The notes below the pieces were generated by a model. The model was not told where the DNA came from, ran no database searches, and worked only from the letters and a program-made list of their open reading frames with translations. 41,648 nucleotides of DNA, from positions 1-41,648 of the forward strand of contig JAWOFP010000009.1 of assembly GCA_046497485.1 (NCBI GenBank), given 5' to 3'. The position numbers and the translations under genes were made by a program. The stretch comes from Candidatus Nanohaloarchaea archaeon. GTDB lineage: Archaea; Nanohalarchaeota; Nanosalinia; Nanosalinales; Nanosalinaceae. How positions within the stretch are numbered: the stretch's first letter is position 1; the number at the start of each line of letters is the position of its first letter. Shown in pieces: positions 12,994-27,784 of this stretch.

Positions 12994-13695
12994 ATGAAAG
13001 ACTCCGAAATTGTAGACGAACCAAGTTTTGAGGCCGCCGAAATAATAAATCAGGGAGAGAAAATATCCGAATCCTTCTACCGAGACATATACAGGAAAAA
13101 TAATGAAGTAGTGAAAGTCTTGAAACAAGGCCTGAGGACCGATCAGATGAAGAGAATAGGAACCTATCTACCTGAAAACCTGGTGCCTGAAACAGTTGTG
13201 AGGACAGAAGACTTATCCGATACAGGGATTTATTCAGGGCATCACACAGTCATATACCAAGACCGCTTTGATGAAAGATTAGATGAAAGACTTGAGGCCT
13301 CGGACCAATGCGAGTTAGGCGATCTAATTTATCTGCTTGACAGGATAGTCGATGAAGACGCAGTTATGACTGACCCTGTAGTTGAGAACTTCAACTACTT
13401 CAAAGAAGATGATGAGTTTCTTGATGGCATGCTTAAGCCCAGCGATATCTGCGATATAGAGTCAATGAAGAAATTACCCGACTCATTCGAGAGAGAAAAT
13501 ATTCAGGAGTCCTATATCGAGGAAGTCGAAAAGATGTATGAAGAAGCCATAATTTCGGTGAACTATAACACAGATCTCACAATGGGAGAAATTGGAGAAA
13601 TATTTGGAGAAACATCTAGATATATACATAAAGTAAGTTTTAGATCTAAGCTAGCTCTTGACGAATGGCCTGAAATTGAGGTATTCCGGCAATAA
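12994..13695 (+). CDS. Hypothetical protein, possibly a divergent protein-kinase-like fold
   Basis: Acidic 233-aa ORF with IYR..VVKV, DPVVEN (DxxxxN) and a downstream SDICD. Confidence 0.6.
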   Translation: MKDSEIVDEPSFEAAEIINQGEKISESFYRDIYRKNNEVVKVLKQGLRTDQMKRIGTYLPENLVPETVVRTEDLSDTGIYSGHHTVIYQDRFDERLDERLEASDQCELGDLIYLLDRIVDEDAVMTDPVVENFNYFKEDDEFLDGMLKPSDICDIESMKKLPDSFERENIQESYIEEVEKMYEEAIISVNYNTDLTMGEIGEIFGETSRYIHKVSFRSKLALDEWPEIEVFRQ

Positions 13696-13700
13696 AAAAT

Positions 13701-13898
13701 TTATCTTAGGCGAGCGCCTGTGCCTCTACCCAAATCTGTGAACTCTAGCTTTCCTTCACGGGCTAACCAGCCTAGCGCCATATTCACTTTTGACTGACTT
13801 CCTTCTACTTCGCGTGAAATCTGGCTTAAAGAGGCCTCTTCAACTTCCTCTAGAAAACTGTGGACTTCTCCTGCAAGCTCTCCGATAGTATGCTCCAT
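13701..13898 (-). CDS. Winged-helix protein (DUF2582-like)
   Basis: IGELAGEV...MALGWLAREGKL signature. Confidence 0.85.
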   Translation of the reverse strand: MEHTIGELAGEVHSFLEEVEEASLSQISREVEGSQSKVNMALGWLAREGKLEFTDLGRGTGARLR

Positions 13899-23215: not shown

Positions 23216-24313
23216 TTAGGCCTCTTTCTTCTGCTTTCTGGTAATAATCTGGAGTTCGCTGGAGTTCGCGTTATCGGAACGCTTCATACCTGCAATATAG
23301 TCCATATCAAGCTCTTCAGCTTTACTTACCTTGCTTGAATCTACTTCGCCGTCGAGAACTAGTGCCCAGGCCTCTTCTTCCAAGTTTCCAATGTTTTCGG
23401 CCGGGACCCTCTCAACCACTTCTCCGTCTTCTTCGATAGTCATAGCTGCTCTTGTACCGACAAGCTCTTCAAACTGCTTATCAAAATCAGGCCTGTCTTC
23501 ATCTACTTCTTCAACTTTCGCATACTTCACCGGTTTCTTATCTCTCAAGGCCTCATGAACTTCTTTTGATGAAAGATCTTCTACCTCTTTGTTTTCTGGC
23601 GCTTTAGTGTAGTATCTTGGAATACTTTTTTCTTTGAGCTCCTTCATTATCAGGTCGCCGCCCCGATCACCGTCCAAGAAGGCTGTGACATCTTTTTCTT
23701 CCGCTATTTTTTCGATTCCTGTCGGAACTGATGTTCCCCCGACCGCCAAGGCATTCTTGACTCCGTGTTTTAACAGGTTCTTCACATCTGATTCCCCTTC
23801 TACAATCACAACTTCATCAGAGATATCTACATCAGGCCCTGCAGGGAAGCCTCTGAACTCTGTGACCTGTTCCTGTCTAATTTCGGCTTTTAAATCTTCT
23901 TCTAAGGCCTTTCTGTCTGGAGAATCTTCTTCTATCTGTGTAAGTAACTGTTTAGCTCTCTTGACAATGTAGTCTCTCTTTGATACCCTCTGATCTCTTA
24001 TCTCATTAACTTTGATATCAGCGTTCGAAGGCCCTACCTTCTCAATTGTCTCTAGTGAAGCCGCTAGTAGAGAAGTATCTGTAGCATTCATAGAAGTCGG
24101 AATCTTGATCTTTCCTTCTTTACCATCTAATTCGACATTCATTCTGGAGACTTTCCCTTTCTTTCTGAGCTCCTTCAAATTCATTTCTTCGCCCAGAAGG
24201 CCTTCTGTCTGGCCGAAAATCGCACCCACCACATCGCTTTTTTCGACTCTTCCAGAAGTCTTTAATTCTGCTTCAATTACATAATTTGCTTGCTTCATCG
24301 CTGCTTTTGCCAT
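23216..24313 (-). CDS. dnaG: Archaeal DnaG (TOPRIM)
   Basis: VEKSDVVGAIFGQTEGLLG, VIVEGESDV, AFLDGDRGG. Confidence 0.95.
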   Translation of the reverse strand: MAKAAMKQANYVIEAELKTSGRVEKSDVVGAIFGQTEGLLGEEMNLKELRKKGKVSRMNVELDGKEGKIKIPTSMNATDTSLLAASLETIEKVGPSNADIKVNEIRDQRVSKRDYIVKRAKQLLTQIEEDSPDRKALEEDLKAEIRQEQVTEFRGFPAGPDVDISDEVVIVEGESDVKNLLKHGVKNALAVGGTSVPTGIEKIAEEKDVTAFLDGDRGGDLIMKELKEKSIPRYYTKAPENKEVEDLSSKEVHEALRDKKPVKYAKVEEVDEDRPDFDKQFEELVGTRAAMTIEEDGEVVERVPAENIGNLEEEAWALVLDGEVDSSKVSKAEELDMDYIAGMKRSDNANSSELQIITRKQKKEA

Positions 24314-24552
24314 TGTTCCACCTTCTCCTCTAACTCATCTTCAGTAAGTTTAACCTTTAACTTTTTTCTAGGCCTCTTATGACCTTCAATCAATCCAACA
24401 TTAGTATCTAATATATCTGAAAGCCGTTCAACCAGTTCAGTGTTCGCTCTATTATTCTCTGCTTCTTCCGTCAACGAGGCCTTCAACATGTGGCCAGTCT
24501 CTAAATCAAATTTGTCCTGACCCGTCTCGACTTTCACATAGATCTCTGTCAT
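24295..24552 (-). CDS. DUF167 (UPF0235/YggU) family protein
   Basis: IYVKV...AENNRANTELV...GHKRPRKKL. Confidence 0.8.
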   Translation of the reverse strand: MTEIYVKVETGQDKFDLETGHMLKASLTEEAENNRANTELVERLSDILDTNVGLIEGHKRPRKKLKVKLTEDELEEKVEQWQKQR

Positions 24553-24568
24553 AAATAGTAAAAATAGA

Positions 24569-24637
24569 GGCTACCTGGCAACATAGACAGTCATTCCAGT
24601 CCCTCGAAGGTCCTGCCTACTGACTTAACAGGTAGCC
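24569..24637 (-). ncRNA. 69-nt K-turn hairpin RNA, H/ACA-like pseudouridylation guide candidate
   Basis: 9-bp terminal stem, internal pocket, 8-bp upper stem, K-turn (CAG-GA-CC / GG-AAU-GA-CUG); TATTAA about 26 nt upstream and a T5 tract downstream. Confidence 0.7.
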
Positions 24638-24691
24638 AAGAAAACATTAAAGGAGAACTCTTAATACATTTGACAAAACCATACATAGATC

Positions 24692-27600
24692 TTAATTTAT
24701 GGTTGCACATACTTCGTCGCTGTCAGCTTCTCCAGCAACATTATATGGTCTAACTTCAACACATATTTGGTCTCCAGAACCCCAGCTACTATCGGAAATC
24801 TGCTCATTTACTTCTGACGACGGCATATCAACCACATTAGACTCCTTAATCGCGCCAACACCATAATATATATTAAATCCTTCAATATCAGCAGAACTGC
24901 TATAGCTGGCCCAATCAATAGATATAGTATTTGTATCTACTACCTCTATATCCTGCACAGTAAGATTTTGAGCTCCTGCGTCATCTTTGGCCTGCATAGC
25001 AATACTATAGTTACCTGGGCTGGGAAAAGAGCGAGATGTAGTTTCTCCGTTCTCCTCAAATAACCCGTCCTTATCCCAATCCCATTTAACACTAGAGACG
25101 CTTCCATCGAGGTCATTACTTGAAGAAGCGTCGAAAGTTACAGAGCCCCCGACTCTAGGACTACTTGGAGAAAAGTCAAAATATGCTAAAGGAACGCAGT
25201 TCTGCTGTTCTAGCTGGGCAGATTGATTCACATTTTTTAGAATAGGATAGTTATTACAGATACTCTCTGAATCGCCAGATTCTACTACGCTCCAGTTCGA
25301 GTTAAAATTCATATCCCCCATATTATCTTTAGCCGACATACCTTGCATCTCTCCAGTAAATAAACCTGTAGAATTTAAATTACCGCCATTAGTCTGCTCT
25401 GACGAATTTATATCCCAGTAGCTTGAAGTAATGCTCCCCTCATTTTCACCAATTAAACCGCTTACATTTCTTTCCCCGCTGACTTTACCGGTAGAATAAC
25501 TATCAGATATAGATCCATAGCCCTTATGCCCAACTAGACCCCCTACAGTTCTTGAGCCATTTACATCGCCCGTAGCATAGCTATTAGACACAGAACCCTC
25601 AACATTGCCTATTAAACCGCCAGCCCATTCAGGACTATTTACATCTCCAGCAGCATAACTACTAGAAACAGAACCAAAATTTTCTCCTATTAGGCCTCCT
25701 GTAGCATCTTCTGCCCCTGTTACATCCCCGACAGCATAACTATCAGAAACAGAACCATAGTCCTTATATCCGATTAGGCCTCCCACCCCGCTCTCTCCAT
25801 AAACATCTCCTGTGGCAGATGTATTAGAAATAGATGTTCCGCAACAGGAACCTCCTATTAGGCCTCCTACACTGTAACCTGCTCCCGATACGTTTGCGGT
25901 CGAACGACTATTAGATATAGAATCGCCATAATCAAAACCAACATATCCAATTAAACCTCCTGTATCTCCGGAATATTTGCTGGAAACAATACCCCCTGTA
26001 GAAACTGAAGAAATTGTTTCGCCCTCATTATATCCTATTAATCCTCCGACTGAGCTTGCCCCAGTTACATTAATTTTATTTAATGCCACATTCTTTACAG
26101 AAGAATCTCCGCCCAAATATCCAAACATACCGACTTCGCTGCTTCTATAACGGTTAATATACAGACCATTGATCGTATAATTATTGCCTTGAAACCCTCC
26201 TAAAAATTGATTATCATAGTTAGGGCCTACAGGATTAAAACCCAAGTAGGTGTCCATTCCAATTGCATAATTCCAGCTTTCTGTATCAGTACATTCGACA
26301 TCATTACTCAATTCATAATATGCTGATAAATTGTTCTGCATAGCCTGTAATTCATAACATGTGCTTATTGGATACGGATTTGTTGATGAGCCGTCTCCTG
26401 ATGAAAAGATAGTTACTTTTTCGGTTACAGAACCATTATTGTTTCCATCGCTTATAGTTAAATTGATCTCGTATGTACCAGGGCTAGAAAAACTATGAGA
26501 CGCTGTCTCACCGCTGCTAGCTTCTCCATCCCCAAATTTCCAGGTGTAGCTATCAATCGATCCCTCTGGATCTACGCTTGAAGAACCATCAAACTCTATC
26601 GACTGTTCTGGCAGAAAAATCTCGTCAGAGAAAGTAAAATCTGCGATAGGAGTACAATCATTTGTTGAAACCCCACTACTTTGATTAAAACCTTCTAAAT
26701 TAGGATAATCTCCAGAGATGGCAACCCATTTATTTTCAAAGTCCAATCGGTGCATGTGACAGATTGCCGATTCTCCGTGCATATCTGAGGTATTCAAAGG
26801 TTTTCCTCCTCCGCTACCTATCTCTCCGAAAGATTCCAAATCCCAGTAACTTGATGATATACTTCCAGAATAGTTATCCCCAACTAAACCTCCAGGATAA
26901 GCATCAGCAAATACATTACCTGAACTGAAGCTGGAGGAAATCTGCCCAAAACGATTTTCACCTACTAATCCTCCAACATTAGTCTCTCCCGAAACAACCC
27001 CCTCAGAAAAACTAGAGCTCAAGTCACCGCCATTTTCACCCACCAACCCTCCAACATCAGCCTCTCCCGAAACAACCCCCTCAACAAAACTAGACTTTAC
27101 TTCGCCTTCCCAAAGATGACCTACTAGACCCCCAACTCTATCATTTCCCGAAATATTTGCATTTGTCAAACCAATATTCTCTATATCCGAAAAAGAATCA
27201 TCCACGTCACCCATTAGCCCAGTATAAGTGCCGTTTCGGTCGATATATAAACCATCAATAGTATGATAGTTCCCGTTTAAATCGCCCTTAAATTTATGAT
27301 TATCGTGATTTTGGCCTATAGGGTTGAAGCCTAAATAATGCTCTTCTCCTGTTGTATTATACCTTATATATAATTCGGCGGAAGTATCATTTTGAAGCTC
27401 TAAAGTTCCACTTTCTGCATCTACAATATCAACATCAACTTCAGAACGATCATCAGAATCTCTAGCAAGAATTACTTGGTCTATTGGAGCATTAGCTGTC
27501 TCAAATGTGTATCCTGCGTCCAAACCAGCAAAGTTTCCTATTTCTTCCTCATAACCCGAATTCCAGTTTATCGTATCTGAGCAATCAATATTATCAACTA

Positions 27601-27784
27601 ATTCATACTCATCAGTAAGGCCTCCCTCAGACCCATATTCTGGATTCATATTCTGGAGTTGTTGACAGGTAGAAATTTCATATGGATTAGAAGAAGATCC
27701 ATCTCCTCCTTCAAAAGCCGATGCTGAAGTTGTTAGCGATATTGATATTATTAACCCTAATATAAGCTTGCTTCTTAATTTCAT
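24692..27784 (-). CDS. Secreted surface protein: two GLUG-repeat/PKD modules and a C-terminal FN3-like domain
   Basis: Signal peptide; GDGSSxNPYxISTC twice; many VGGL(V/I)G repeats; PKD motifs FDGSSSVDPEG..YTWKFGDG and FDASSSNDLDG..WDWDKDG. Confidence 0.9.
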   Translation of the reverse strand: MKLRSKLILGLIISISLTTSASAFEGGDGSSSNPYEISTCQQLQNMNPEYGSEGGLTDEYELVDNIDCSDTINWNSGYEEEIGNFAGLDAGYTFETANAPIDQVILARDSDDRSEVDVDIVDAESGTLELQNDTSAELYIRYNTTGEEHYLGFNPIGQNHDNHKFKGDLNGNYHTIDGLYIDRNGTYTGLMGDVDDSFSDIENIGLTNANISGNDRVGGLVGHLWEGEVKSSFVEGVVSGEADVGGLVGENGGDLSSSFSEGVVSGETNVGGLVGENRFGQISSSFSSGNVFADAYPGGLVGDNYSGSISSSYWDLESFGEIGSGGGKPLNTSDMHGESAICHMHRLDFENKWVAISGDYPNLEGFNQSSGVSTNDCTPIADFTFSDEIFLPEQSIEFDGSSSVDPEGSIDSYTWKFGDGEASSGETASHSFSSPGTYEINLTISDGNNNGSVTEKVTIFSSGDGSSTNPYPISTCYELQAMQNNLSAYYELSNDVECTDTESWNYAIGMDTYLGFNPVGPNYDNQFLGGFQGNNYTINGLYINRYRSSEVGMFGYLGGDSSVKNVALNKINVTGASSVGGLIGYNEGETISSVSTGGIVSSKYSGDTGGLIGYVGFDYGDSISNSRSTANVSGAGYSVGGLIGGSCCGTSISNTSATGDVYGESGVGGLIGYKDYGSVSDSYAVGDVTGAEDATGGLIGENFGSVSSSYAAGDVNSPEWAGGLIGNVEGSVSNSYATGDVNGSRTVGGLVGHKGYGSISDSYSTGKVSGERNVSGLIGENEGSITSSYWDINSSEQTNGGNLNSTGLFTGEMQGMSAKDNMGDMNFNSNWSVVESGDSESICNNYPILKNVNQSAQLEQQNCVPLAYFDFSPSSPRVGGSVTFDASSSNDLDGSVSSVKWDWDKDGLFEENGETTSRSFPSPGNYSIAMQAKDDAGAQNLTVQDIEVVDTNTISIDWASYSSSADIEGFNIYYGVGAIKESNVVDMPSSEVNEQISDSSWGSGDQICVEVRPYNVAGEADSDEVCATIN
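26954..27094. repeat. Tandem GLUG-unit duplication, 78-bp period
   Basis: 26954-27016 and 27032-27094 match at 56 of 63 positions. Confidence 0.85.

Follow-up and report, generated by a model that had tools for sequence, protein, structure and literature searches.

The window, that is the whole stretch of 41,648 nucleotides analysed here, belongs to a genome (G000) of 967,558 bases in 66 contigs, which is 97% complete and whose long open reading frames encode 18.7% Asp+Glu against 10.2% Lys+Arg. A hairpin lies on its minus strand between two genes of the same orientation. Directly upstream is the gene of a 1,030-residue protein with PKD and GLUG repeats (24692-27784); in G002, a different sequence stands in its place. 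Downstream comes a DUF167 (YggU family) gene (24295-24552), with its start codon 16 nt past the hairpin and its stop codon overlapped by the gene of a DnaG-like Toprim protein (23216-24313). An Rfam scan of the entire window returned one tRNA only, and no match at E ≤ 1 at the hairpin locus.

Read on the minus strand, positions 24637-24569 form a hairpin with every element of the preliminary description in place, the structured core of a candidate single-hairpin pseudouridylation guide as judged from folding, homologues and covariation. The lower stem P1 has nine Watson-Crick pairs, between GGCUACCUG (24637-24629) and CAGGUAGCC (24577-24569). Above it opens a pocket with a 5′ strand of 8 nt, UUAAGUCA (24621-24628), and a 3′ strand of 5 nt, GUUGC (24578-24582). 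The upper stem P2 (5′ strand 24613-24620, 3′ strand 24583-24590) has eight pairs, G-U included, and is continued by two G-A layers. These belong to a K-turn (GA/GA, AAU bulge, CC/GG) that is closed by an 11-nt apical loop (24591-24612) and is a predicted L7Ae site. The resulting geometry of 10 layers, 5 nt and 9 pairs is termed productive in PMC4652768. Downstream of P1, a run of five U (24564-24560) may be a terminator or the 3′ end. Upstream, the TATA-like element TATTAA (24666-24661) lies about 25 nt from P1; TTAAGAGTTCT is common to G000 and G002. The preliminary description had reported this layout, G-U pairs that work on the minus strand only, the TATA element and the T-tract; all are present, the roles of the last two being putative.

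The 69-nt hairpin folds with -28.0 kcal/mol on the minus strand versus -22.0 kcal/mol on the plus strand. For a 75-nt stretch the folding z-score is -2.84, two of 200 shuffles being equally good, and for a 141-nt stretch it is -1.71. A descriptor scan of the G000 genome found eight such hairpins, one of them with an rRNA target; three shuffles gave 6, 6 and 2 hairpins, with 1, 1 and 0 rRNA targets. The hairpin pattern is near chance within one genome, and we count the hairpin as real because it is conserved across genomes. A further guide with an rRNA target did not turn up in G000 with the same strict descriptor, which would miss stem-less and K-loop guides.

DUF167 follows the guide in 37 of 47 loci, and of the 36 loci where the distance was measured, 20 have its start codon at most 20 nt past the hairpin; the guide is also kept where DUF167 no longer follows (e.g. 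in G024, G036 and G014). Given these short distances, the guide may be co-transcribed with DUF167 and dnaG and then cut out, or it may end at the U-run with some read-through. AT-rich TATA-like pentamers show a weak positional enrichment, with 15 of 47 loci in the -30 to -21 bin versus 3-8 in other bins. A sigma-70 promoter scan, with a model unsuited to archaea, returned nothing. As a separate matter, one DnaG-like protein query had no match in 18 of the 57 genomes of the order, as expected from incompleteness alone, yet the match is also missing in the single-contig G018 and G024 and in all eight genomes of family f4; the observation concerns G018, G024, G036, G030, G004 and this family of the order.

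A BLAST-type DNA search finds few homologues, and collecting them beyond that search needed dnaG-anchored loci and a covariance model. Thirty loci around dnaG yielded 28 guide copies, to which the DNA search added two. The covariance model trained on these 30 copies has one match each in 47 of the 57 genomes of the order, the training set making up 30 of the 47. In the phylum sample of 70 genomes, all of one order and probably Nanohaloarchaeota, it matches 58, one of them twice; among high-quality genomes, 26 of 28 carry the guide. The model has no match in four outgroups, in the sole genome of the phylum of G060, upstream of dnaG in three genomes of genus g23, or in 17 rRNA loci. The ten non-syntenic guide loci hold no Rfam RNA, and thus no copy was seen inside an intron. 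A loose pocket pattern applied to all genomes was discarded as noise, since it gave about 11,000 stretches, mostly in unrelated bacterial records.

Both stems covary. The model-fitted alignment contains 146 cells with double-sided changes versus 47.8 in shuffles, and an unfitted MAFFT alignment 62 versus 21.4; relatedness inflates these counts, and nonetheless pairing falls from 89.6% to 31-43% in slid controls. P1 is 96% paired, with six of its seven pairs covarying. The pocket strands are nearly invariant while the stems vary: the 5′ strand has GUCA in 46 of 47 homologues and the 3′ strand GUUAC in 44, GUUGC occurring solely in G000. GA is found on both K-turn strands in 43. Covariation, a kept pocket and K-turn, and homologues near dnaG and DUF167 are points that the preliminary description had named for checking.

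The 23S rRNA of G000 is absent from the assembly, where only 16S pieces were assembled; for this reason its target was taken from relatives. Helix 69 is exactly GTAACTATGACCGTCTTAAGGTAGC in 16 of the 61 genomes searched, including the same-genus G003. The complete 23S of G003 lies in a region with 1,988 T positions, and at only one of them, the U of GUAAC-UA-UGAC, does the G000 pocket reach at least 4+5 pairs. In G010, two sites among 1,779 T positions reach this threshold, the second one with four G-U pairs. The guides of G002 and G006 form 12 pairs at the same helix-69 U; G000 pairs more weakly than most copies, with nine pairs, including one G-U, and a 5′ pocket pairing of 4 bp. The rRNA target sequence is invariant across these genomes. 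A helix-69 loop U had been named as the target at the outset, and in G003 the fit to it is unique. GUUGC would pair with GUAAC and GUCA with UGAC, leaving UA alone unpaired, and the target U would lie 14 nt from the box slot. We take this U to be U1915 in E. coli numbering. The second U of the UAUG loop, two bases on (U1942 in Haloferax), is paired in this register, so a single modification is predicted and the second U should be left unmodified by the guide. The first U of the loop corresponds to U1940 in Haloferax (PMC7075261).

The slot of the ANA box (24566-24568), occupied by AAA, AUA or ACA in most homologues, reads UCU in G000, and UCUAUUUUU, directly after P1, contains no ANA, in agreement with the preliminary description. 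Counting down from the top of the pocket, 38 of 47 homologues have an ANA at 14 nt and two more at 15 nt; at offsets 18-30 the count is 1-3 of 47. Besides G000, six of the 46 others are box-less (G002, G012, G027, G018, G030 and G037), the seven copies belonging to four genera. A Cbf5 tree built from 30 chosen genomes, whose bootstrap is not yet settled, requires five changes of the box label, at least three of them forced by well-supported branches, and in it G000 groups with G004, a carrier of AAA. The absence of ACA is genuine, but a local loss. Cbf5 of the box-less genomes has its catalytic motif and PUA domain intact, with no shared change visible by eye. In G037 (L148), the Cbf5 match contains one TGA and its frame ends a few residues early; the guide there is also box-less.

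Whether such a guide needs its box is disputed. Muller et al. 2008 state that ANA is required for Cbf5 binding (PMC2377435). Majumder et al. 2020 report a typical single-hairpin guide whose activity, in vitro as well as in vivo, does not require ACA, and an engineered U1940 guide that gave comparable pseudouridine in vitro after its ACA was changed to UGU (PMC7075261). Since typical guides work without ACA there, the loss of the box calls for no special mechanism. In this typical geometry the box would be dispensable, and for that reason, we propose, it was lost more than once.

As expected for an H/ACA guide, Cbf5, Nop10 and L7Ae are all encoded in G000 and score over cut-off; the GTLD motif of its Cbf5 is intact and the PUA domain present. 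Cbf5 was found in 30 of 30 and in 4 of 5 genomes tested, and Nop10 over cut-off in 50 of the 57 genomes of the order. The genus g23 (G038, G041, G049, G053) has the guide in none of four genomes and no full-length Nop10, with Cbf5 intact. This is suggestive of a co-loss of guide and Nop10, and only suggestive because it concerns one lineage with genomes 85-91% complete and because three other incomplete genomes have the guide and no Nop10 match. In g23, Cbf5 may act alone.

Gar1 has no Pfam match in any genome of the order (57, of which several are single-contig); the sensitivity of this search is limited, since it matched three of four outgroups and missed Sulfolobus. Further searches with two NCBIfam models and a single protein query, each against five genomes, gave noise-level scores only, as did a custom profile on 9,277 frames of G000, the best E-value over these further searches being 0.096. 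No Gar1-like ORF lies upstream of TFB. Two candidates in the window were rejected: the match at 13498-13707 (E 0.012) covers a stop codon as well as an unrelated ORF, while 2490-2747 (E 0.51), the best one of the custom profile, resembles a PRC-barrel protein by eye. The lineage may have a very divergent Gar1, or the guide particle may consist of three proteins. A gar1 deletion of Thermococcus kodakarensis is without the 23S pseudouridines 2589 and 2592, which depend on the RNP proteins (Fujikane et al. 2018, PMC6138745). Classic particles lacking Gar1 retain some activity in vitro (PMC11077068, presumably Li et al. 2024).

Compared with the canonical archaeal H/ACA layout, the G000 copy has a lower stem in the range of 7-9 bp, a pocket, an upper stem, a K-turn with tandem G-A pairs 9-10 layers above the pocket, and a bipartite complementarity around an unpaired UN, judged on the 23S of G003; the three proteins above are encoded. 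It lacks an ANA 14-16 nt from the target, and Gar1 was not found in the lineage. By its layout the RNA would act as canonical archaeal guides with a single motif do, and all RNA features of this type are present in 40 of 47 homologues.

The closest likeness in target is stem-loop 2 of Haloferax volcanii sR-h45, a K-turn guide of the same type directed to the helix-69 loop UAUG, including U1940 (PMC7075261). There, two hairpins are present, UAUG is left unpaired, both U1940 and U1942 are modified and the ACA is needed, whereas the present guide has one hairpin, UA alone unpaired and a 14-nt spacing, the comparison being one of layout and target. It resembles rather the engineered '1940 guide' of the same study, active with UGU for ACA. 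The Pyrococcus guides Pab91, Pab160 and Pab21 (PMC2377435, PMC4652768) share its 9-bp lower stem, pocket, 10-layer stem with GA pairs and K-turn, and Pyrococcus single-motif guides have the same 14-15 nt spacing of the 10/5/9 fold. Unlike them, the G000 copy has no ANA and no Rfam family match, and belongs to a lineage where Gar1 was not found.

The likeness to atypical Pyrobaculum guides seen in the preliminary description is a loose one. Pyrobaculum sR203-sR210, Sulfolobus islandicus sR109, sR563 and others also combine a K-turn upper stem and guide strands with the lack of a canonical ACA. In those guides the lower stem is mostly or wholly missing and activity in vitro depends on Gar1 (PMC4652768, PMC11077068), whereas here a full, covarying lower stem is kept and the box alone is lost. 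With Nanoarchaeum equitans (PMC3491384), the system has in common an apparently sole H/ACA RNA, a reduced genome, a promoter, putative here, and a T-stretch; the N. equitans RNA differs in being 159 nt long, with two hairpins and two ACA motifs. The openly accessible literature searched has no description of the guide RNA or of a loss of Gar1 in the lineage. The five ncRNAs given by Reva et al. 2023 (PMC10266531) are without GGUCAG and by eye are not the guide RNA. A nanohaloarchaeal RNA of 266 nt is reported in bioRxiv 761684.

It is thus highly probable, on the strength of the sequence comparisons, that the locus encodes a conserved K-turn hairpin that guides Cbf5 to one helix-69 loop U for conversion to pseudouridine, in G000 without an ACA box. 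L7Ae would bind the K-turn, and Cbf5-Nop10 the stems. The G000 copy itself could be decaying, because it pairs more weakly than the others and has no box. The family would then work while this guide modifies little or nothing, its box lost and its pocket weakened. The absent ANA, the GUUGC unique among 47 copies, the 4-bp pairing of the 5′ pocket strand and the Gar1 that was not found all fit such a decay. We regard it as unlikely: the nine pairs of P1 are perfect and show compensatory changes, neither the K-turn nor the spacing is disturbed, and the box has been lost repeatedly, in four genera whose Cbf5 is intact. Other copies that pair through GUCA only (G004, G020, G005, G031, G019) retain the box. 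Very unlikely is a role mainly in cis, in which the hairpin would serve as a K-turn leader and let L7Ae control the translation of DUF167 and dnaG. The close and frequent succession of DUF167 agrees with it, and control of translation by L7Ae is reported in archaea (PMC5539422), but it leaves unexplained why the pocket strands are invariant and match helix 69 and why the ANA is fixed at 14-15 nt, and the guide persists in loci without DUF167 downstream. The RNA may have both roles, guide and cis leader.

The preliminary description had rightly noted that the 5′ arm of P1 is complementary to rRNA sequence just past the target, and had proposed that strand invasion stands in for the ACA. The 5′ strand of P1 would exchange its partner for the rRNA downstream of helix 69, either replacing the ACA anchor or helping substrate loading or release. 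In two box-less copies, G000 and G002, GCUACCU indeed gives a duplex of seven Watson-Crick pairs with this rRNA segment; with G-U counted, all six positions can pair in 31 of 45 homologues. Yet the perfect Watson-Crick complement is found in only two of the 45, while 13, none in the family of G000, pair at four or fewer of the six; the UUAAG stretch is not conserved in G002. Of the seven box-less copies, two have the perfect complement, four have two G-U pairs like their box-bearing relatives and one barely pairs. All 45 show an energetic cost for the exchange, from +3.8 to +17.1 kcal/mol by rough sums over the duplexes that include neither the fold of the rRNA itself nor proteins; G031 and G005, included in the counts out of 47, are omitted here because their 3′ pocket strand differs. 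Moreover, the changes in P1 covary with the guide's own 3′ strand, the intact P1 stem is what Cbf5 binds (PMC7075261), and 40 of 47 homologues possess an ANA box. Strand invasion in place of the ACA is not borne out. With +3.8 kcal/mol for G002 and +4.9 kcal/mol for G000, these two belong to the five least unfavourable cases, for which reason we leave strand invasion a small probability and call it quite unlikely.

For the preferred reading, a box-less guide to helix 69, both the way of guiding and the site targeted are already known, and the missing Gar1 is a more surprising lead than the loss of the ACA. A phylum-wide RNA gene is missing from Rfam. We put forward, tentatively and at somewhat less than even chances, that the phylum possesses a stripped machine of Cbf5, Nop10 and L7Ae without Gar1, with a single guide for one helix-69 uridine and an ACA dropped several times. 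If true, it would be the smallest natural H/ACA system and would demonstrate that Gar1 and ACA are both dispensable in vivo; should Gar1 really be absent, the particle would be a minimal one of three proteins. The prediction is sharp: a pseudouridine at the first U of the helix-69 loop, and none at the second by means of this guide. For the disputed ACA requirement, sister genomes that have the same guide with and without the box are natural test cases.

Several single genomes depart from the common pattern. In G023 and G035 (L109, L112), an insertion lengthens the 5′ pocket strand to about 15-18 nt and its pairing end is kept. The copy of G016 (L125:547-636) has CUACA and not GGUCA in this strand, so that this side misfits helix 69, and AAA is kept. 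The 23S of G014 breaks off just 3′ of helix 69, at a match to group I introns (RF00028, 61.7 bits, L294:1841-2091). Its helix-69 stem has a compensatory A-U pair, which the guide still fits by G-U.
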